The position numbers and the translations under genes are program-made. Shown piece after piece: positions 7,987-58,283 of a stretch of DNA of 64,000 nt. The stretch covers positions 96,001-160,000 of the IMG/VR virus record IMGVR_UViG_3300047462_000154. One strand, given 5' to 3'. The stretch comes from a virus. Positions within the stretch are counted from its first letter, which is position 1; each line of letters begins with the position of its first letter. The notes beneath the pieces are model-generated. The model was given only the letters and a program-made list of their open reading frames with translations. It ran no database searches and was not told the origin of the DNA.

Positions 7987-8193
7987 TATTATTTGACCTC
8001 CAAAAAGTCTTTTTATTTGTTATTTCTATTTATTCGGAGGACGTGTTTTTAATGTATTAAGTAAACAAGTATGCACAAAATATTACTTGAAAAAAATATT
8101 TAGAACGGTATTTTTGTTTTGATTTTCAAAGTTTTTGAGATGGAACGTTGTAAATTTATTAAATTTTTTTTGCAGAAAATTTTTTTAGCAATT

Positions 8194-8802
8194 TCAAGAT
8201 TTACCATAAACATCATTGGTTTGCATTGTAACTCTGTAAAAAACAGCATTATATGAAAAATATTGCAATTTATTACAATTTATGTAACTTCCACATGAAC
8301 GCAAACCACCAAGTATTTCTAAAATAGTATTTTCTACTGGTCCTCTATCATTTAATAATACAAGTTTACCTTCTGCTGCTCTGTGTTTCGCAACACCGCC
8401 AGAATATTGTTTCATGGCTTCTTCGGAAGACATACCAAAGAATTTATATTTCCCATCAACTAATTCTAATTCAGATTCAGAATGAGCAGCTAACATTCCA
8501 CCAAGCATTGTAAAATGAGAACCACCACAAAAAGCTTTAGCAACGTCTCCTGGTGTGGTACAACCACCATCTGAACAAATCATACCACCAACATCATAGG
8601 CAGCCTCAGAACAATCTATAATGGTCGATAATTGACTACGACCAACACCAGATAATTTACGAGTAGTGCAAGCGGAATTATGAACAACTAAATCGTTAGC
8701 AATATAACTATGGTCATCTTCTACTTCAAAATCAAAAGTATTTTCATTAATTTCTTCTTCTTCTATTAAAGTAATTTCAACAAGTTTAAATTTAGTTAAC
8801 AT
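8194..8802 (-). CDS. guaC: GMP reductase C-terminal half fused to split C-intein (42 aa)
   Basis: ...FDFEVEDDHSYIANDLVVHN|SACTTR; then SDGGCTTPGDVAKAF, MLGGMLA, FFGMSS, RAAEGK, ILGGLRS GuaC motifs; own AGGAG RBS at 8809-8813. Confidence 0.92.
   Translation of the reverse strand: MLTKFKLVEITLIEEEEINENTFDFEVEDDHSYIANDLVVHNSACTTRKLSGVGRSQLSTIIDCSEAAYDVGGMICSDGGCTTPGDVAKAFCGGSHFTMLGGMLAAHSESELELVDGKYKFFGMSSEEAMKQYSGGVAKHRAAEGKLVLLNDRGPVENTILEILGGLRSCGSYINCNKLQYFSYNAVFYRVTMQTNDVYGKS
8677..8802 (-). mobile_element. split intein C-fragment (IntC)
   Basis: Blocks F and G ending His-Asn followed by Ser(+1); begins at its own ATG. Confidence 0.92.
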
Positions 8803-9368
8803 TTTTTTCTCCTAATAAAAATTTTTTACATATTTCAAAAATACCAAATGGATCTTTTCTAAAATCAGTTTCTAAAATAGTTAATAATTGATATCCGCAT
8901 GATTTTGCAAAATCTTTTTTTTGTATATCACGTAATTTAACTTTTTCTATATCCTTATCGCTTCTTAATTTTTTATTTTCGATTAACCCATGGTAATAAT
9001 CTCCATCAAATTCTATTATTTTGTCTCTATATGAAAAATCATAATAATAAATTGTATTTCTGTTTTCGTCTCTTAATATTCTTTGATTTTTGCCCCATTT
9101 TCCTCTATTTTTTTATTATTTTTTTGTTTTTCTATATAAGCATCCCATTTTTTTGTTCCTTCTATTTCACCATGTCTATCAATAAAACTTTCTTTTGTGT
9201 TTATTTTTTTTTTTTTGAATTATCTGTGCATGATTTTGATACATCGCTTTGATAATTGCTTACCATTAATTTTGCTGATTCTGGATTCATGTCAAATCTA
9301 TCTATCCAATATTCTATACATCTTGGAGATATTTTTTTACCTCTTGCTGTTTTTTCTTCTTCTGGCAT
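8792..9368 (-). pseudogene. Vsr-like/DUF559-type free-standing homing endonuclease, broken by two frameshifts
   Basis: Not in the ORF track. ATG overlaps the upstream TGA (TGATG). Fragments: MPEEEKTARG...SKKKK* (A13 run 9204-9216); INTKESFIDRHGEIEGTKKWDAY; YYYDFSYRDKIIEFDGDYYHG...RDIQKKDFAKSCGYQLLTILE...NVN* (stop 8792-8794). Confidence 0.85.
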
Positions 9369-9685
9369 CAAACTACTTCTGTGTTCAATTCTAACATTAA
9401 AAATTCATTAGATAGTTCTTCTGCTGACACCCATTTTGCATAGGAATCTATATTATCGTCATTTAAAATACCAAGATATTTTTTATGAACCACATAAAAT
9501 TCATGATTTGGTGTAGTTTTTATTCTTTCATTTATTTTTAATATTTTTTTATGGTGTTCATGAATAAATGTTTTTGATACTTTTTTCCATGATGCGGTAT
9601 GGGTTAAAACAATATCGTTAATTTTAATGTCTTCGATATTTTTATATCCAGTAGATGTTGTTATTTGTGTTCCAGACACAAAACA
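9368..9685 (-). mobile_element. split intein N-fragment (IntN)
   Basis: Block A CFVSGTQI, block B TPNHEF, ending WVSAEEL...stop; no blocks F/G. Confidence 0.92.
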
Positions 9686-10282
9686 ACCGCCAGAAATACC
9701 ACATTTAACAACGTCTACACCATTCAAAAGTAATTCTCTTGTCATTTCTCCAGAAACTACATTACCAGCCATGATAATTAAATTTGGATGTTTATCACGC
9801 ATCATTTTACAAAAATCTATGAAAACTTGCATGCCGCCATTTGCAACATCGATATTAATCATTTTAATACCATTTGCTTTTTCTTCATTCCAATAACCTG
9901 TTTTTGATAATACATATTCAAATTTTTCAATATCTTTTTGGGTTATTCCCATAGAATAAAATGTATTTCCTGGTGGATTTTCAAATCTTTCTTGAGCATT
10001 TTTGTTACCACCATTTAAGAAAAATTGAATTAACTCTCTAGCTGGATAATGTTTATGTAAAGCAGTCATACATTTATGTTTAGATAATGCTTTTGCTAAA
10101 GAAATTGTTCCAATTCCTGTCATATTTGCTGCTACAATTGGAATCGATGTTAAAGTATATGGTGAATGTTTAAATTTAAAAGTTCTTGTTAAATCAACTT
10201 CTGCTCTTGATGAAATATTACTTTTCTGTGGTTTAATTAATACATCTTTGAAATCTAATTGAATTTCGTCAAGAATTATCAT
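9368..10282 (-). CDS. guaC: GMP reductase N-terminal half fused to split N-intein (105 aa)
   Basis: LDFKDVLIKP..S.ISSRAEVDL, IPIVAANM, TALHKHY, IDVANG, IMAGNVV, DVVKCGISGG|CFVSGT; type-1 GuaC without CBS domains. Confidence 0.92.
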   Translation of the reverse strand: MIILDEIQLDFKDVLIKPQKSNISSRAEVDLTRTFKFKHSPYTLTSIPIVAANMTGIGTISLAKALSKHKCMTALHKHYPARELIQFFLNGGNKNAQERFENPPGNTFYSMGITQKDIEKFEYVLSKTGYWNEEKANGIKMINIDVANGGMQVFIDFCKMMRDKHPNLIIMAGNVVSGEMTRELLLNGVDVVKCGISGGCFVSGTQITTSTGYKNIEDIKINDIVLTHTASWKKVSKTFIHEHHKKILKINERIKTTPNHEFYVVHKKYLGILNDDNIDSYAKWVSAEELSNEFLMLELNTEVV

Positions 10283-10302
10283 TTATTATTCTCCATATAA
10301 TT

Positions 10303-10616
10303 TGAAATTAGAATTTATATGGTTTGAAAGTCAATTTAAATTGAATACTAATCTGGAAAAAAATTCCAAGGTTTTGTTTTTTCTATTCTATTTTTTGCTA
10401 TATTAAAATAATTTTCTTCTTTTTCTATTCCAATAAAATTTCGTTTCTCTAACCTACAAGCAACGCCAGTTGTGCCACTTCCCATGCAATTATCAAGAAC
10501 ATTATCGTTTTCATTTGAATTTCGCCATGATATAATTTATCAATAATTAACATTTTATTTTCTCTTGTTTAAATGAAATTAGAATTTATATGGTTTGACA
10601 GTAAATTTAAATTGAA
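10303..10616 (+). repeat. 43-bp direct repeat pair (10303-10345, 10574-10616)
   Basis: tgaaattagaatttatatggtttga(a/c)agt(c/a)aatttaaattgaa, 2 mismatches. Confidence 0.85.
10348..10518 (-). pseudogene. C-terminal remnant of beta-class N6A/N4C DNA methyltransferase
   Basis: Reads [45 protein letters not shown] (SAM-binding motif I); upstream in-frame stop at 10537-10539; no catalytic DPPY half. Confidence 0.8.
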
Positions 10617-12084: not shown

Positions 12085-12195
12085 TTGAATTGGTGTGAAG
12101 AAAATTGCAAAAGTGATTGGGAATTTTCATATTACTGCTTCTGTTTCAAAGATAAAACAGAAGCAGTTTTGTTTGCATTACTAATTAACTTTTAG
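12085..12195 (+). pseudogene. partial tandem copy of the preceding gene's 3' half
   Basis: Reads LNWCEENCKSDWEFSYYCFCFKDKTEAVLFALLINF*; shares long identical stretches with 11964-12062; no ATG or clear RBS. Confidence 0.65.
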
Positions 12196-14008
12196 CTTTT
12201 CTTCCGCGTTTTTTAACTGTTGTTATTTCTTCAATTGGTTTTTCATTAGCAGCATGTTGTTCCATTTCATTTTCAACTTGTCTTGTGAAACTCGGTGTAG
12301 CACCAGCAACAGTCAATAAATCATCGCGAATATCTTGACTTCGTTTTTCTAAATTTAACACTCTACGAAATGAATTTTTAATAATTTGTGTATAAAAAGC
12401 AAAAGGATTATCAGATTTTGATTCATCAAATTGTAAAGCAACTTGAGATAATTGTAATAAAGCATTTCCACGCATTTCATCGTTATACGTATTGAAAGTA
12501 AGGAATACTGTCCCATTTCTTCTTACCATTAAAGTGTTATTTTCTGTTTCTGGACACCAAACAATATCAGAATAATCAACCGTTGGTTCATTTGGATGAT
12601 TATGCTTTCCGCGCCCTTTTATTTTGCCATTATTTTTTCCACCATGAAAATCAATATTTTCAACACGTGAATGATTTGCACGTTTTGAAAAGAAATTAAC
12701 ATTGTAAATATGGCTTTCTAATTTATTTGTTTCTGTAATAATATCTCTCTTTTTATAAGCAACACGATGACCACATAAAGTGCAAAGAAATACAAATGCA
12801 TCAACATGTGCTTTGTCTTTTTGACAATATCCAATATTTAAACCATTTCCAATTTTTGTTCTCCAACCATCACCATCAATCATGGCATTCATTAACAATT
12901 CTCTTTGTTCATTTGTTAATGATAAAATAAAATCATATTTTAAAACTTTGTTTTTTTCTTTTGAGTTTTCAATTACTTCTAATAATTTATTTCTCATATT
13001 TTTTGAAAGTCTAAAACAAACATTTATATTTTTTCTATTTTTTCTATAACTTTCTGTAAATTTTTCATTTAAATTATTCAAACAATTTCTAATTCTATCT
13101 GCATATATTCCTTCATTTTGATAGAGTGATGTGGAAGGATTTTGTCTTGAATTATCAAAACAACCTTTAGTAACCATCCATCCCAATAATTCAACAAATG
13201 CATCATCATATGTTTTTTCTTTTGGTCCATCAACCGCAGAACCCACCATAATAACTTTATCTGTTTCTAAAAGATAATCTACTTCTTTTGGTCCATCCTG
13301 AGTAATAAATCTATGACCAGGAGTTACTAATGCATCCATACCACGAACAGTTAAGTGAAACATTTTTCCTTCATAATGGTTGCGATATATTGATTTTATT
13401 TTTGACCATTTTAGTTTTTTTGTTTCTAACTCATATGATAAAATAATATCATCAGTGGTTATCTCATCATATTTTAACCAACCACGTTGGGTCAATGCTT
13501 CAGAAAATTTGTCAAAGCAATAATTTCTCCAGTTACCACGTTTAGCATATCGTTCTACTAACAACATAATCATCAATGCTAATCTTTTAGAAATCATGCC
13601 TTGGTCACCACAAAACTCACCATTAGAAATACTACCAATCCAATGTGAACGACCAACTTCTCGATATACACCATTTTCAAAAATATAATGTTGAAATGGT
13701 GGAAAAACTGTTCTTATTGCATCAGTTGTTCCTAAACCACGTTTTCTTGTTTTCCCATCAGGGTCATTTGGAATATGCGAATCTGTCATTAAACGATATA
13801 CCAAATCTTCTTTTTTTAATTTAACTTCAGCTTTAGCATTTATTTTTGTTAATACAGCATCTTTCATTTCTTCTGTTATATTTTTTAAATCTGTTACAAT
13901 AATATGAAATTTACTATATTCGTCTTTTTCAAAAAAACTATATGAAACTTTACTTTTGTGAATTTCAGATAATAATTCTTTGTTAGTTATATACTTAATT
14001 TTTTCCAA
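12185..14008 (-). CDS. late transcription sigma factor (T4 gp55-like) with intein
   Basis: YITNKELLSEIHKSK; ERYAKRGNWRNY|intein|TYNDEMRGNALLQL; FDESKSDNPFAFYTQII.NSF.R.LN.EKR; extein about 264 aa. Confidence 0.9.
   Translation of the reverse strand: MEKIKYITNKELLSEIHKSKVSYSFFEKDEYSKFHIIVTDLKNITEEMKDAVLTKINAKAEVKLKKEDLVYRLMTDSHIPNDPDGKTRKRGLGTTDAIRTVFPPFQHYIFENGVYREVGRSHWIGSISNGEFCGDQGMISKRLALMIMLLVERYAKRGNWRNYCFDKFSEALTQRGWLKYDEITTDDIILSYELETKKLKWSKIKSIYRNHYEGKMFHLTVRGMDALVTPGHRFITQDGPKEVDYLLETDKVIMVGSAVDGPKEKTYDDAFVELLGWMVTKGCFDNSRQNPSTSLYQNEGIYADRIRNCLNNLNEKFTESYRKNRKNINVCFRLSKNMRNKLLEVIENSKEKNKVLKYDFILSLTNEQRELLMNAMIDGDGWRTKIGNGLNIGYCQKDKAHVDAFVFLCTLCGHRVAYKKRDIITETNKLESHIYNVNFFSKRANHSRVENIDFHGGKNNGKIKGRGKHNHPNEPTVDYSDIVWCPETENNTLMVRRNGTVFLTFNTYNDEMRGNALLQLSQVALQFDESKSDNPFAFYTQIIKNSFRRVLNLEKRSQDIRDDLLTVAGATPSFTRQVENEMEQHAANEKPIEEITTVKKRGRKAKS
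12491..13519 (-). mobile_element. intein (343 aa) with LAGLIDADG-type endonuclease
   Basis: Starts CFDKFSEALT, block B VTPGHRF, LLGWMVTKG and LMNAMIDGDG motifs, ends VWCPET...TFN|T. Confidence 0.9.
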
Positions 14009-50905: not shown

Positions 50906-53900
50906 TTATGTTCCAGGCGTGCCAGGAGCGGGTGGTGGTGGAGCCTCAGTAGATGACGTGCTTCCACCAGGACCAGCTTCAGGAGGCTGTTCACCGCCTA
51001 CAACATTACCATCAGTATTATCTTCAGGTTCATTACCTAAAGCGTCTAATCCAAAATCATTCGATGTGCCTCTAACGCCAACATCTGATAAATCTTGATT
51101 CGTATTGGAATCAGCAGGATTTTCACCTGTTGAATTTTCTACCAATTCTGGATTTTCTTCTTGCCATAATGTTTCATTTTCAATCAATTCATTTTCTGAT
51201 AAATTCAAGAAACGTTTTAATTTAAATCTTTCAGATAAACGCTTATTGTCTTGAACCTGAGTATATACTTGCATTTGTTGGGTATCGATTTCAATTTGTC
51301 TATACTTCGTAAAATTCTGTGGAGGATTAAAACGAAGTTCAAAAATACTTGAATCAATCTCAATACCATTTTTTTCCAAATAGTATTTAAATTCTTTATC
51401 AAATACTGGAGATAATAAATTCTGCAATCTCATGCAATATTTGTTGAAACGAAATTCTTGAATTAATGCAGCACCTAATTTACCATCATTAAAAGAAATA
51501 GCACCAGCAGCATCATCTCCAATAGACAAATATGATGGTGGAATACGCAAACCACGTGCAAGCTTCTTACTAAACCAAGATAAATCTGTTATTTCCCCAG
51601 TGGAATTATAAGTAAATACACCAGCACATAATGCAAAAGTATGAAAATCATGAAAAATTTCTAAACCATCAATAGTTATAGTTCCAGTATCTATTCTTTC
51701 ATCAAGATATTCAATTGAAACAACTTGGTGATTAAAGTTACTGGAATTTTTCTTAAAATGTTTCCAATTTGTAAAACCATATTCATTTATAATTGTAATA
51801 ATTTGATTAGAATGAATTTTATCATTGTTTGTCAAATGATGTGTTTTTGGATTTTCCTTCTTTAATAAATCAATAAATTCTTTATTTTTATTTAAAGAAG
51901 AAATCATGGAATTCATTGTATTTGCGCCATTTTTTAATTCTTTAATTAAAATTCTCATCATATCAATATTAAAATTGAAAGTTTTTGAATTTTGTAAATC
52001 TTTGTAACGAACTTCACCCCAAGACAAATTTCGTTCTTCTAACATTTGACGAAAATGTCTTTGATATAAAACAAAATTATTAATATCTAAATTTTTGGCA
52101 GTAGTATTTTTATTTTGTTCAATAATTAAATCCATTATTTCTTTATTTTTGTTTGCTTTTTCAATCAATTGTTCCATTGTTAAAGTTTTTTTATCACACA
52201 ACGAAATAATTTTTGTGAAAATTTCATCATCAAACATAAGTTTTTGATTTTTTGCTTGGTTAACAAAAGCTTCAGTTTTTATTCTTTCCTTAAATAAATC
52301 AGAATAACGTTCTCTACGCTCTGGTGTATACGATTTTTTAACACCTTCTGTTCTACGCGCAACTAACTCATCATGATATTCTTTATCAGACATAAAACGT
52401 TCAATATGTTTATCAATTCTACCATTTAAGAAACTTTCGCGGCGAGATTCCCAAAACTCTAATTTTTCTTGTTCCGATTTTTTATTCCAAGCCTCTTTGC
52501 TTCTTAAACTTGTTTTTTCTGCAATATCAATTCTTTCTTCATCTGATAAATTTTTCCAATAATTCATCACCCCTTCTCTGATATTATCTTTAAAATTTTC
52601 ATTAATGGTTTTAGAATGATATTCATAATGGTCTTTATAATTCATCCAATACAAATTAGATGGATTGTTATCAAAACGATTAAAGTTTTTATGATGAACA
52701 CATGTTCTTGGTTCATCTCTATACTTTTCATCGTTTATCATAATATTTTCCATATCACTATTTTTAAAATATTTTGCAACTAAACGATGAACATATAACC
52801 ATTTTTTTGATTGGTTATCAAAAACCATCATATAATCTTTTGTTCTTCCTTTTTTTATTTCTTGTTTTTTTGTTTCAAAAGGAAATAAAGAATCGCCAAT
52901 TTGAATATTTCTTGCTTCTGTTTTGCCTTTTCCTTGAACTGGAAAATTATGGTCAGGTGTCACTGTGATAGTTTCACCATTATCCAAAGTAATTTTCAAA
53001 ACTTCTGCATTTTTTCTTGTTATGCCAGCCCAATTAATCATACCAGGAACTATTTTTCCAGTAATTGGGTCACATGAATACGCCCATAATTGTTTACCGT
53101 TTTCATGTTCTTTAATAATTTCAGAAAGTGATAAATTTCTTCCATCTAATAATGGTATCATTGTATCTAAAGATAAACACTCTCCACCAGGAAGAACGTC
53201 AACTTTTGAACCTCTTCCCTCATTACCGCAATTATGAACATATACACCACTTGATAATGCAAAAACGTGGCTATTTGATTCACTTTCAATTGTTAAATCA
53301 CCAGTGTCTTCAATGTATGGAAGTAATTCTACAGAAACCACTTTATGATTTTTCTTATAAGATTTTTTAAACTCATCCCAAGAATTATAACCAGCAATTT
53401 CAACAGTTTTATTTAAAGTTTTGTCTCCAATATATGAACCTATTTTTGTATTATGTTTATATGTTTTTGTATTTTCATTGGCTTTTTTAAATTCAAATTG
53501 AAAAATTTCATCATTTTTTAAAACGGGAATTAATTTAGAAATACTATCATAACCATTATCATATAATTCAACCAAGCGTTTGAACATATTTTCTGAATAT
53601 TGTAATGTTCTTTCTTTATTTGACTGTTCTCTAATTTTATTAATGTGATTTACAGATTTTTTTCTTTTTTCATCATCAAAATTTTGCCATGCTCTTATAT
53701 TACTTTGTCTGTTTCTTTCTGCTAATTTTACTTTATCTTCATCAGACATATTATCGTATAAATTTCTCATTCCGTTAAGAAGATTTTGTCTTTTAACAGG
53801 GTCTTTCCAACTCACACCCAAAGAATAACTTCCGAGTTTTTTATGCAATTCAATATGTTCTTGTGCATCCATAATTTCTAAATTAGATGGTGTATTATCC

Positions 53901-55408
53901 ATAGAATTTAAATTCTTATGATGACATACAATATTTTTATCAATTGGTTTTTTTGATATTTCATGAACAAATTTTTTCTTATTTGTTTTATTGCATAAAT
54001 ATCTTACATATTGTTTCTTTTTTTGATTTTTTCCAGAATTAAATTGAAACAAATATAAAGGCATTAATGATTGCCCAGTAACCAATTTTTCTGCTTCTAA
54101 TTCAGAACCATCTCTCAATATAAATTTATGGTCTGGAGTGCAATCAATATATTCACCATTATCTAATGTAACTCTTAAAATTTCTGCATTTTTTCTTGTA
54201 ATTCCAGCCCAAGAAATTTTTCCTGGTTCCATTTCATGAGTTTTTGTGTTTAAAGAATATATCCAATTTTCTTTGCCATTTTTATATTCCTCAATTAAAT
54301 CATTTAAAGATAATTTTCTACCATCTAATAAATCAATTTTGGTATTTAGAGAAAGACAAGCGAAAAAATAATCCTCCACCATACTCATTGCGTTGTAACT
54401 GGCATCAAGGCGTGAATTTCCACCACCCGACCTATTTGGTATGTACCTGGAATGAATTTCATTTTTTACAGTTTCTAAATGTGCTTTAGCTTTTACGGGT
54501 GGCATTGCTCCAACGTCAATATAAAAAACTCTTCTTTCTGGCGCACGTTGCACGCGATAAATTAAAATAGCATCTTCCAATAATTCTTTTTGTTTAAATG
54601 TTTTGAATATTGGTTCTAATACGCTTTGACCAAACGGAAAATTAATGTCCATACCAACGGACAAAGATAAATGCACCATATGTTTTGCATCAACAACAAA
54701 CATTTGGTTTTGCATTGTTTGTGCTGCTTGTCTTCCTCTTGGGTCTGCATTGGAACCAGCCAATGAAAATGCAACTGGACCGCTTGAAGCAGGAACAACG
54801 GCAGGGCGTCCACCATAAGCGTTTGCTGCACCAAATGGTGTACGATATTGTTGAGGGTCAGCAGTGATTGTTGCGAATTTTGCTTGTCGATTTAAATCTA
54901 ATCCTCTGATGACATATTCTTCTGGTTTTTTACTACCAGAATCATCAACTTTTACCATTTCCACCATGAATGAATCGACCCATAACCATTCTAATGTTTC
55001 TGGGTCTCTTAGGAATAATTGGTCACCATTTTTGATGGTATTTCTGAACATTTGCCATAATTTTTGGCGAAAGGTATTTAATTTAATCCATTTTTCAATA
55101 TATTCATTGATAAGTTTTACTTCGGTTTCTGTTACTTTACCATTATATTTTATTTCAAATGGTTGGTCAGATTGTTCTTCTGATTGCGTGCAAAAATCAG
55201 CAATAGTATCCAAAGCAGCATTAATATCAGAATCTCTATCCATATCGTCATATTGATAATATCTTTGAATTCTATTTGGATGCCCTGCATATACTTCTGG
55301 TAAATAACTTGAATATTTTGCAGATGTTCCCGCCATACCACCTTGAGACACAGGATTTGTTGTAGATGTGGGCAAATTGGCACTTCTAAAAAATTTTTTC
55401 CAACTCAT
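50906..55408 (-). CDS. portal protein (T4 gp20-like) with two inteins
   Basis: RYYQYDDMD.DSDINAALD, LLEDAILIYRVQRAPERRVFYIDVG.MP, EDYFF, LPGG, LARGLRIP.SYL, IQEFRF; spliced length 599 aa. Confidence 0.95.
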   Translation of the reverse strand: MSWKKFFRSANLPTSTTNPVSQGGMAGTSAKYSSYLPEVYAGHPNRIQRYYQYDDMDRDSDINAALDTIADFCTQSEEQSDQPFEIKYNGKVTETEVKLINEYIEKWIKLNTFRQKLWQMFRNTIKNGDQLFLRDPETLEWLWVDSFMVEMVKVDDSGSKKPEEYVIRGLDLNRQAKFATITADPQQYRTPFGAANAYGGRPAVVPASSGPVAFSLAGSNADPRGRQAAQTMQNQMFVVDAKHMVHLSLSVGMDINFPFGQSVLEPIFKTFKQKELLEDAILIYRVQRAPERRVFYIDVGAMPPVKAKAHLETVKNEIHSRYIPNRSGGGNSRLDASYNAMSMVEDYFFACLSLNTKIDLLDGRKLSLNDLIEEYKNGKENWIYSLNTKTHEMEPGKISWAGITRKNAEILRVTLDNGEYIDCTPDHKFILRDGSELEAEKLVTGQSLMPLYLFQFNSGKNQKKKQYVRYLCNKTNKKKFVHEISKKPIDKNIVCHHKNLNSMDNTPSNLEIMDAQEHIELHKKLGSYSLGVSWKDPVKRQNLLNGMRNLYDNMSDEDKVKLAERNRQSNIRAWQNFDDEKRKKSVNHINKIREQSNKERTLQYSENMFKRLVELYDNGYDSISKLIPVLKNDEIFQFEFKKANENTKTYKHNTKIGSYIGDKTLNKTVEIAGYNSWDEFKKSYKKNHKVVSVELLPYIEDTGDLTIESESNSHVFALSSGVYVHNCGNEGRGSKVDVLPGGECLSLDTMIPLLDGRNLSLSEIIKEHENGKQLWAYSCDPITGKIVPGMINWAGITRKNAEVLKITLDNGETITVTPDHNFPVQGKGKTEARNIQIGDSLFPFETKKQEIKKGRTKDYMMVFDNQSKKWLYVHRLVAKYFKNSDMENIMINDEKYRDEPRTCVHHKNFNRFDNNPSNLYWMNYKDHYEYHSKTINENFKDNIREGVMNYWKNLSDEERIDIAEKTSLRSKEAWNKKSEQEKLEFWESRRESFLNGRIDKHIERFMSDKEYHDELVARRTEGVKKSYTPERRERYSDLFKERIKTEAFVNQAKNQKLMFDDEIFTKIISLCDKKTLTMEQLIEKANKNKEIMDLIIEQNKNTTAKNLDINNFVLYQRHFRQMLEERNLSWGEVRYKDLQNSKTFNFNIDMMRILIKELKNGANTMNSMISSLNKNKEFIDLLKKENPKTHHLTNNDKIHSNQIITIINEYGFTNWKHFKKNSSNFNHQVVSIEYLDERIDTGTITIDGLEIFHDFHTFALCAGVFTYNSTGEITDLSWFSKKLARGLRIPPSYLSIGDDAAGAISFNDGKLGAALIQEFRFNKYCMRLQNLLSPVFDKEFKYYLEKNGIEIDSSIFELRFNPPQNFTKYRQIEIDTQQMQVYTQVQDNKRLSERFKLKRFLNLSENELIENETLWQEENPELVENSTGENPADSNTNQDLSDVGVRGTSNDFGLDALGNEPEDNTDGNVVGGEQPPEAGPGGSTSSTEAPPPPAPGTPGT
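51605..53179 (-). mobile_element. portal intein 2 (525 aa, HNH endonuclease)
   Basis: PGGE|CLSLDT...TPDHNF...YVHRLVA...VHHKNFNRFDNNPSNL...HTFALCAGVFTYN|S. Confidence 0.92.
53231..54358 (-). mobile_element. portal intein 1 (376 aa, HNH endonuclease)
   Basis: YFFA|CLSLNT...TPDHKF...CHHKNLNSMDNTPSNL...HVFALSSGVYVHN|C. Confidence 0.92.
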
Positions 55409-56563: not shown

Positions 56564-56720
56564 GTTCATGCCAATTTTGTTGGGTGAACTACCCACGCCC
56601 TAAAGAGGCGTGGGCTTCCAAATCATTGACTTGGATTTTTTCACGATTCATCGACTCGTAACTACAATCAGACATGCCCAACTGCCCATTAGAGGAATCT
56701 CCCCGTGCGTATATTCGGAC
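56564..56720 (-). ncRNA. predicted TnpB omega/reRNA (scaffold plus flank-derived guide)
   Basis: Inferred from known IS605 biology: overlaps tnpB 3' end and right-end hairpin, guide from flank 56583-56564; 5' boundary approximate. Confidence 0.55.
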
Positions 56721-57839
56721 GGTTCCCGCCCTATTGATCTCATTCACTGCCCATTTTTTCAAGTTCATGGCTGCATTTGCATCCCTGTCCATAACCATTC
56801 CACACGATCCACATTCATACACCCGCTTATCCAACGGCATATCTTGTTTGTGTCCACAGTTTGAACACGTCTTTGAACTCGGATAGAACCGATCAACCAA
56901 CAACAACTTGCCGCCCTTCGATGCAAGTTTGTATTCAATCATCGAACGGAACTGGCTCCATCCTTGCTTTGCAATCGCATCCGCAAGACAATGGTTTTTC
57001 ATCATTCCTTTGATGTTCAAATCTTCCATTCCAACAAACGAATAAGCATTGGCTATCTGCCGACTCGTTTTGTGATGGAAGTCATATCGTTGATTTTTTA
57101 CATGAGCATGTAATTTTCTTAGTTTTTGTTTTTGCTTCTTCCTTCTATTCGACTTCTTAATCTGATTTTTCTTGTTCAACAGATCAATTCGAGACAATTT
57201 ACGCTGTGCTGATTTCAATCGCTTCAATGATAACTTAAACGCATCAAACATTTCACCATCACTGGTTACAGCAAAAGTCTTTAATCCTACATCAATACCG
57301 CATATGTCTTCCTCGGTGGTGTCGGTGATGGGTTCAATATCAGGTAATTCACACAGACATACTACATACCAGTGAACGCCCTCTTGTTTGACGGTAATGG
57401 ACATCAATCTACCTTCTGTTGGGCGATGTTGTTTCCATTTAATCCAGCCGAGTTTTGGAAGTTTGATGGCGTTTTTGCTTAGCTGAATGTGTCCGTTGGT
57501 TTGAGGGATGCGGAAGGTGTCGTTTTCGTCTTCCTTTCTTTTGAAACGAGGAAATCCAAAACCAGATTTGAAACATCTTTTCATTGCTGTATCCAAATCC
57601 CAACATCTTTGTTGTAGGGATTGGCTTGGTAGATCAGCAAGCCATGGATGATCTTTCTTCAATTGTGGAAGTGAAACAATCATCTCATGTTTAAATATGA
57701 ACTTTTTTTCGTCGGCATATTTTGCTTGATTTGCAGCAAGCATTGTATTCCACAACCAGCGACAACCACCACCGATCTGTTTAAGATCGGCAACTTGTTT
57801 TTCAGTTGGTTTGAGACGATATTTGAATGCCTTGTGCAT
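56589..57839 (-). CDS. tnpB: RNA-guided endonuclease TnpB
   Basis: HKAFKYRLKPT HTH, RuvC GIDVG / MEDL / DRDANAA, zinc finger CSNCG...CGSCG; start 57839 or 57845 rather than 57932. Confidence 0.95.
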   Translation of the reverse strand: MHKAFKYRLKPTEKQVADLKQIGGGCRWLWNTMLAANQAKYADEKKFIFKHEMIVSLPQLKKDHPWLADLPSQSLQQRCWDLDTAMKRCFKSGFGFPRFKRKEDENDTFRIPQTNGHIQLSKNAIKLPKLGWIKWKQHRPTEGRLMSITVKQEGVHWYVVCLCELPDIEPITDTTEEDICGIDVGLKTFAVTSDGEMFDAFKLSLKRLKSAQRKLSRIDLLNKKNQIKKSNRRKKQKQKLRKLHAHVKNQRYDFHHKTSRQIANAYSFVGMEDLNIKGMMKNHCLADAIAKQGWSQFRSMIEYKLASKGGKLLLVDRFYPSSKTCSNCGHKQDMPLDKRVYECGSCGMVMDRDANAAMNLKKWAVNEINRAGTVRIYARGDSSNGQLGMSDCSYESMNREKIQVNDLEAHASLGRG

Positions 57840-57881
57840 ATTCATATTTATGCAACATGTCGATACGGAGTGTAAATAACT

Positions 57882-58283
57882 ATGCGTGAATATATGTCGA
57901 ATGGGCGAGCAAAATATTTGCTTATGGCTCATTTCATTTTTGTGGTGAAATACAGAAAGCCTTTGCTTGTTAGATATGGAAACGAAGTGAAGCAGAAAAT
58001 GATGGATATCGCCTCAGTGAGTGATTTTGATATAGATACCATAGAGGTTGACAAGGATCACATTCATCTGTTGATTTCGTATGCGCCTCATATATCTATC
58101 AGTTCTATAGTTGCTCGTTTGAAGGGACAGACAACGCACGACTTATGGAAAAACCATCCAGCTTTGTTGAAAAAGCAATTTTGGAAAGAGCATATATTTT
58201 GGTCGCCAAGTTATTTTGCTTGTTCAGTAGTCGGAAATGCGAGCCAAGATATAATTCGCCATTACATAGAAAATCAGGGCTGA
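57882..58283 (+). CDS. tnpA: IS200-type Y1 HUH transposase TnpA
   Basis: HFIFVVKYRK, DHIHLLI (HUH), FWSPSYF, YIENQ (catalytic Tyr). Confidence 0.95.
   Translation: MREYMSNGRAKYLLMAHFIFVVKYRKPLLVRYGNEVKQKMMDIASVSDFDIDTIEVDKDHIHLLISYAPHISISSIVARLKGQTTHDLWKNHPALLKKQFWKEHIFWSPSYFACSVVGNASQDIIRHYIENQG

Follow-up and report, generated by a model that had tools for sequence, protein, structure and literature searches.

The gene for GMP reductase (guaC) in this stretch of viral DNA is divided over two separate open reading frames, and the question it raises is how an enzyme that is broken within its catalytic-Cys loop could still be produced, and what caused the break. We consider it very likely that a mobile cassette interrupted a phage type-1 guaC in this loop, and that the cassette's split class-1 intein would still join the two halves into GuaC by trans-splicing, while the endonuclease that belonged to the cassette is dead.

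Organisation of the locus

The window (i.e. the whole stretch of DNA that was analysed, 64,000 nucleotides) contains the following parts of the gene; all coordinates are those of the window, unless indicated otherwise.

9368-10282 (-): guaC N-half ORF, 304 aa plus stop, N-extein fused to IntN; GGAG ribosome-binding site at 10291-10294
9686-10282 (-): GuaC N-extein, 199 aa (GuaC 1-199), C-terminal end GISGG, placed by alignment to NF003470 and 2a7r
9371-9685 (-): IntN, 105 aa, begins CFVSG; Cys1 and block B T-P-N-H (T257 and H260 of the ORF)
8194-8802 (-): guaC C-half ORF, 202 aa plus stop, IntC fused to C-extein
8677-8802 (-): IntC, 42 aa, ends VVHN; DHSY and terminal HN, net charge -10
8197-8676 (-): GuaC C-extein, 160 aa (GuaC 200-359), begins SACTTR, i.e. 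Ser+1, Ala and the catalytic Cys

The host gene is thereby carried by two ORFs on the same strand, the one ending and the other beginning with an intein half, which is the arrangement described as a fractured gene by Dassa et al. 2009. The two halves are separated by a 565-bp spacer and each ORF has its own ribosome-binding site, that of the C-half being AGGAG at 8809-8813, 6 nt 5' of the ATG at 8800-8802, where the surrounding RNA is unstructured (below shuffled controls in structure). An earlier note, made from the letters alone, had given the same limits for both ORFs, the same 105-aa and 42-aa intein halves with the boundaries GISGG/CFVSG and VVHN/SACTTR, and the AGGAG of the second ORF, all of which were borne out. 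An independent assembly (Logan) of the moss metagenome run that is probably the source reproduced positions 8100-10400 with 0 differences and 0 gaps.

The host enzyme

Pfam and NCBIfam models place the IMPDH/GMPR domain in residues 9-217 of the N-ORF, with Hint-type matches from residue 200 onwards, while the C-ORF shows an intein C-terminal match first and then the remainder of the IMPDH/GMPR domain. The ORFs were cut at GISGG/CFVSG and VVHN/SACTTR and the four resulting pieces were scanned separately. The N-extein matched the GMP reductase model NF003470 over positions 1-183 of 347 (187 bits) and the C-extein over positions 184-346 (212 bits), compared to only 53 and 83 bits for the two exteins on the IMPDH model TIGR01302; the simple sum of the two half-scores on this type-1 GuaC family (NF003470 / TIGR01305) is 399 bits, with a curated cut-off of 397 for the full-length protein. 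On human GMPR2 (PDB 2a7r) the N-extein corresponds to residues 24-201 and the C-extein to residues 202-363, and in an extein search of the PDB GMPR2 reached 172 bits versus 74 bits for IMPDH. Because the exteins abut on both NF003470 (183/184) and GMPR2 (201/202), the join between them is seamless. C45, T47 and E144 of the C-ORF, which include the catalytic Cys of S-x-C-T-T-R and the Glu of R-A-x-E-G-K, do not vary among the aligned split C-halves and also align to GMPR2, and intein-free relatives read GIGPGSACTT across the insertion site.

Judged by these alignments, the enzyme is a type-1 GuaC and not an IMPDH. This agrees with the earlier note, which had recognised GuaC motifs in the exteins, had proposed a search of the joined exteins with GuaC/IMPDH models (here both halves, scanned separately, favour the GMP reductase model), and had placed the junction two residues before the catalytic Cys, as the extein alignments confirm. 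Two positions stand out in this copy: the flank on the N-side reads SGG, with G at position 197 in nearly all relatives, and extein Y150 is replaced by G. Either change might alter the splicing rate or the enzyme activity.

The intein and its known relatives

The residues of a class-1 intein are all in place. Cys200 of the N-ORF, directly after GISGG, provides the N-terminal nucleophile (Cys1), block B has its TxxH as T257-P-N-H260, and the C-terminal His-Asn is followed by Ser+1 (VVHN/S). C200, T257 and H260 are invariant in 24 aligned split N-halves, as are D24, S32, Y33, H41 and N42 of IntC, together with S43 (Ser+1), in 18 aligned split C-halves. At the level of profiles, IntC scored 26.5 bits on TIGR01443 (intein C-terminus; cut-off 15.6), while the Hint_2 and TIGR01445 matches of IntN were both under their cut-offs. 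The Pfam intein/Hint models likewise remained under cut-off on the separate halves, which is to be expected since these pieces are half-domains. IntN and IntC match solved inteins and Hint domains at modest E-values, including 2lwy (E 3.6e-5 with IntN), 7cfv and gp41-1 (6qaz). A net charge of -5 to -10 is found for IntC in most members of the GuaC-hosted clade, and its acidity is therefore a trait of the clade rather than a peculiarity of the phage studied here.

The earlier note had likened the locus to the fractured genes of phages, and both layout and insertion site indeed match those of IMPDH-1, a fractured gene from the GOS metagenomes (Dassa et al. 2009, PMC2677866; PMC7090010). In the supplement of PMC7090010, IMPDH-1 is entered as a naturally split intein found in GOS data; its junction is GGG/SIC, its IntN is 101 aa and its IntC 40 aa long. 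It occupies the same point of the catalytic-Cys loop (GGG/SIC, compared with SGG/SAC here), Cys1 and Ser+1 are found in both, and in both cases two ORFs on the same strand have a Vsr-like endonuclease gene, here only a remnant, between them. IMPDH-1 trans-splices in vivo as well as in vitro (PMC11168065; PMC7090010), for which Ser+1 is essential (PMC11168065). Between the IntCs, 20 of the 40 residues are identical (50%), and the IntNs share ~44% identity in a hand alignment to the printed sequence; IntN compared with IMPDH-type loci by tblastn gave 38-48%. The intein thus has the properties of an IMPDH-1 intein allele, i.e. the same GxGxG/S-x-C insertion point and a homologous sequence, but its host protein is not an IMP dehydrogenase: the IMPDH-1-type loci (L005, L012) have IMPDH-like exteins, whereas the host here is a type-1 GMP reductase. 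Further differences are the net charge of IntC (-10 here versus +3 for the published IMPDH-1) and the endonuclease, which at the locus studied here is a pseudogene.

The split inteins gp41-1, gp41-8 and NrdJ-1, from fractured genes of phages, are elements of this class as well and share the Cys1/Ser+1 chemistry, but reside in other host genes and at other insertion sites and form orthogonal intein families; the sequence similarity of gp41-1 (6qaz) to the intein in the window is weak. The cyanobacterial DnaE inteins (Npu, Ssp) are also Hint domains that occur split in nature, and their trans-splicing restores an essential enzyme, but the genes for their halves lie at distant places without an intervening endonuclease, and the +1 residue is Cys instead. 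DnaE split inteins also show the opposite charge pattern, with a basic IntC. As a GuaC-hosted relative of the widely used IMPDH-1, with a strongly acidic IntC, the intein described here is a candidate orthogonal ligation tool, of which many similar ones are already public.

The spacer

The earlier note made no mention of an endonuclease gene between the two halves. The spacer holds the remains of one, distributed over three reading frames.

8795-9368 (-): endonuclease remnant in three reading frames, matching the intact P0394 (340 aa) colinearly over residues 122-340
9204-9368 (-): segment A, its ATG (9366-9368) overlapping the N-ORF stop as TGATG; aligned to P0394 122-182
9204-9216 (-): A13 run with the first -1 frameshift, also present in the Logan contig
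9076-9219 (-): segment B; aligned to P0394 175-208
9076-9112 (-): overlap of frames B and C, with the second -1 shift (A-rich) and a deletion of ~22 codons (P0394 209-230)
8795-9112 (-): segment C, holding E-F-D-G-D-Y-Y-H, its end overlapping the IntC ATG; aligned to P0394 231-335

Segments B and C match the same PHROG colinearly. An exhaustive HMMER search with frame C yielded 300 relatives, the best of which was P0244 (identical to P0394 residues 126-340), while a word-based protein search with the same frame gave no matches. Pfam models found nothing significant on the remnant, in which NUMOD3 motifs were not detected either, though they are present in the endonucleases of the relatives. 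The core motif of Vsr-like (DUF559-related) endonucleases, E-F-D-G-D-Y-Y-H, has been kept, but the ORF is no longer intact. Through 5' truncation the first ~125 residues of P0394 have been lost, and the ~22 residues deleted internally span a motif, N-I-S-x-I-E-x-T-F-C-x-M-I-E-L, that is conserved in P0244/P0394, P0245 and P0246. With two frameshifts and two deletions, the free-standing endonuclease gene between the halves reads here as a pseudogene only. The 506 flanking extein and intein codons, on the other hand, show no lesion; the endonuclease has decayed selectively while the neighbouring codons stay intact.

Proposed mechanism and alternatives

Following these results, the halves of a naturally split class-1 intein would once have flanked a free-standing Vsr-like homing endonuclease gene, which would have spread the cassette before becoming a pseudogene. 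The two half-proteins would be translated separately, after which the 105-aa IntN and the 42-aa IntC, which is very acidic, would associate to form the Hint fold. Cys1 would then form the thioester, Ser+1 would attack it and the terminal Asn would cyclise, giving as the product a 359-aa GuaC that reads GISGG-SACTTR. From the experimentally active homologue IMPDH-1 we infer association, splicing and enzyme activity; the timing of expression we likewise infer. Active enzyme would exist only after trans-splicing, as the earlier note had suggested, and it is our proposal that the intein may have been kept because the host enzyme needs it.

Whether the halves are still used at all deserves consideration, since the cassette could also have destroyed guaC, leaving two unjoined relics. 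A dead gene would suit the clear decay of the endonuclease at this locus, the presence of a methyltransferase remnant just upstream, and the change of two near-invariant extein positions in this copy. However, in a genome with 31% GC a stop is expected approximately every 13 codons, and both ORFs are intact over 506 codons, with all catalytic and splicing residues and both ribosome-binding sites retained; moreover, the split halves have dozens of homologues, conserved at 40-74% identity. Loss of the gene is therefore very improbable in our view. More improbable still is that the intein halves serve as a non-covalent docking module without splicing, comparable to the split NrdA of phage Aeh1 (PMC3045599). 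Tight electrostatic pairing is suggested by the strongly acidic IntC (net -10), and the break does lie in a surface loop of the TIM barrel, but a Hint domain of ~150 aa would then sit directly on the catalytic-Cys loop. In addition, Cys1, TxxH, the terminal HN and Ser+1, none of which would be needed for docking alone, are intact and invariant in the family, and the homologue IMPDH-1 splices efficiently.

The endonuclease, rather than being decayed, could conceivably still be produced in small amounts if the polymerase or the ribosome slipped by -1 on the A13 run and at the second, A-rich site, in which case the shifts would act as a throttle. Both shifts are indeed -1 and located in A runs, and the three frame segments run without a stop over 55, 48 and 106 codons, much longer than chance would allow in this composition. 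Slippage would nevertheless not restore the ~22 deleted codons of the conserved motif or the absent N-terminal part of ~125 aa, and the intact relatives have no such shifts, which makes this an unlikely explanation. Trans-splicing of an otherwise intact GuaC around a decayed endonuclease gene thus remains the reading that we prefer.

Relatives and evolutionary stages

With the N-ORF as a protein query we obtained at least 27 split N-halves with an IntN of 100-120 aa, all at the G-x-G-x-G/CF site, besides five contiguous intein-containing forms (494-503 aa) and many intein-free GuaC proteins, while the C-ORF search gave at least 23 split C-halves reading HN/S-[AV]-CTTR. The homologous split halves in metagenomes thus number in the dozens, at 40-74% identity. 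With so many of these halves already public, the novelty of the locus had been estimated too highly in the earlier note. Its layout, intein family and endonuclease family were all published in 2009, and the locus is a further example of them. In a blastn comparison with cultured-phage records no relative of the locus was found, the methylase remnant being the only part that matched.

Among fifteen IMG/VR loci that were compared, every stage is represented:

Split, with an intact endonuclease of 308-337 aa (NUMOD3 motifs and a DUF559/Vsr-like core): L003, L004, L007, L010, L012
Split, with a spacer of only 90-155 nt and no endonuclease: L005/L013, L008/L009, L015
Contiguous mini-intein: L006, L014

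With its half-length, broken endonuclease, the locus studied here sits between the split stages with an intact endonuclease and those without one; gp41-7 has been listed before as a locus without endonuclease (PMC2677866). The intact endonucleases of the relatives are free of such frameshifts. Homologous inteins occur at this one site in two paralogous hosts, namely IMPDH-like proteins (L005, L012) and type-1 GuaC (L004 and the window). The other metagenomic split-GuaC loci (L004 on a 375-kb viral contig, P0002/P0125 and P0003/P0394/P0130) share the extein family, the site, the intein family and the architecture; where the spacer measures ~1 kb, the endonuclease is intact at 308-340 aa, whereas the 565-bp spacer here holds only its broken C-terminal two-thirds.

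Two sister viral contigs, one of 375 kb and the other of 227 kb, 85-88% identical around guaC, differ by a cassette of ~1 kb (L004:4273-5311 versus L006:4273-4313), L004 being split with a 325-aa endonuclease and L006 having a contiguous mini-intein.

Mobility of the cassette

P0002/P0125 come closest in the exteins, with 73-74% identity, but their intein halves reach only 51% and 43%. For P0003 and P0127 the order is reversed, with 69% and 67% in the intein halves and only 50-52% in the exteins; the IntC of P0130 is the same as that of P0127. P0003, P0130 and P0394 (the closest intact endonuclease) presumably lie on one locus, each reporting a longest contig of 10,568 nt. Cassette and host gene thus differ in their closest relatives, which indicates transfer of the cassette, and the two appear to have had different histories, as homing predicts.

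In a run from another moss sample and study (X3), one low-depth contig of 151 nt matches positions 8541-8677 without a difference and then continues for 14 nt that have a single occurrence in the window, at 9687-9700. This one low-depth contig reads as the exact intein-free junction, in which 8676 would be joined to 9686; the 28-mer spanning the junction was not found in viral_contigs or metagenome_contigs. It is a tentative reading, which we place somewhat below the balance of probability, that the phage lineage occurs with and without the cassette in neighbouring moss samples. The locus would then represent a late phase of the homing cycle, with a dead endonuclease, empty and occupied alleles co-existing, and a cassette derived from a guaC lineage other than that of the host gene's closest relative.

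In general, the locus displays a late stage in which the endonuclease has decayed and the split intein has been preserved, with signs of cassette transfer and a possible intein-free allele nearby; as such, it illustrates the published evolutionary model without changing it.

Genome context and expression signals

The record from which the window was taken is a linear IMG/VR fragment of 172,315 bp, estimated by CheckV to be 39% complete. It encodes a T4-like portal, a tail sheath, a baseplate and a gp55-like late sigma factor. The earlier note had spoken of the full context of a jumbo phage; a jumbo size is an estimate and was not seen in the 172,315 bp at hand.

Inteins abound in the record: the portal has two, the sigma factor has one, and a further intein C-terminus lies close to the end of the record. 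The portal (T4 gp20-like, 1500 aa, 50906-55408 (-)) has intein matches at approximately 360-726 and 750-1100, the second with an HNH nuclease region. In the gp55-like late sigma factor (607 aa, 12185-14008 (-)) an intein-like insert at 180-352 scored 30 bits, just below the Pfam cut-off. Past the end of the window, at 172107-172205 (-) of the record (G000:C1), an intein C-terminal match starts a 180-aa open frame.

Directly upstream of guaC, 10351-10536 (-) encodes only the C-terminal ~50 residues of a DNA methyltransferase (the region of the G-S-G-T-T-G motif), which is probably a gene remnant since none of the frames continues further upstream. This remnant accounts for all blastn matches to cultured phages.

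As for expression signals, neither sigma-70-like promoters nor intrinsic terminators were found above chance, and the T4-late-like motif TATAAATW was not enriched (38 found versus 33 expected). Because of this lack of enrichment, the copy that precedes the N-ORF, at 10312-10319, provides no evidence for a late promoter. No tRNAs were found in the window.

The sole hint of transcription is an identical contig of 152 nt (9517-9667) in a permafrost metatranscriptome from another study, which is possibly carried-over DNA. The same or a near-identical phage may thus occur outside the moss samples, with DNA carry-over as another possible source of this contig. The small-share runs X5 and X10 contained only short identical pieces (10146-10378 and 9517-9667), which are uninformative on habitat or expression.

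Finally, a transposase-like ORF of 447 aa (phrog_506, E 5e-117) lies among the structural genes at 56589-57932 (-).
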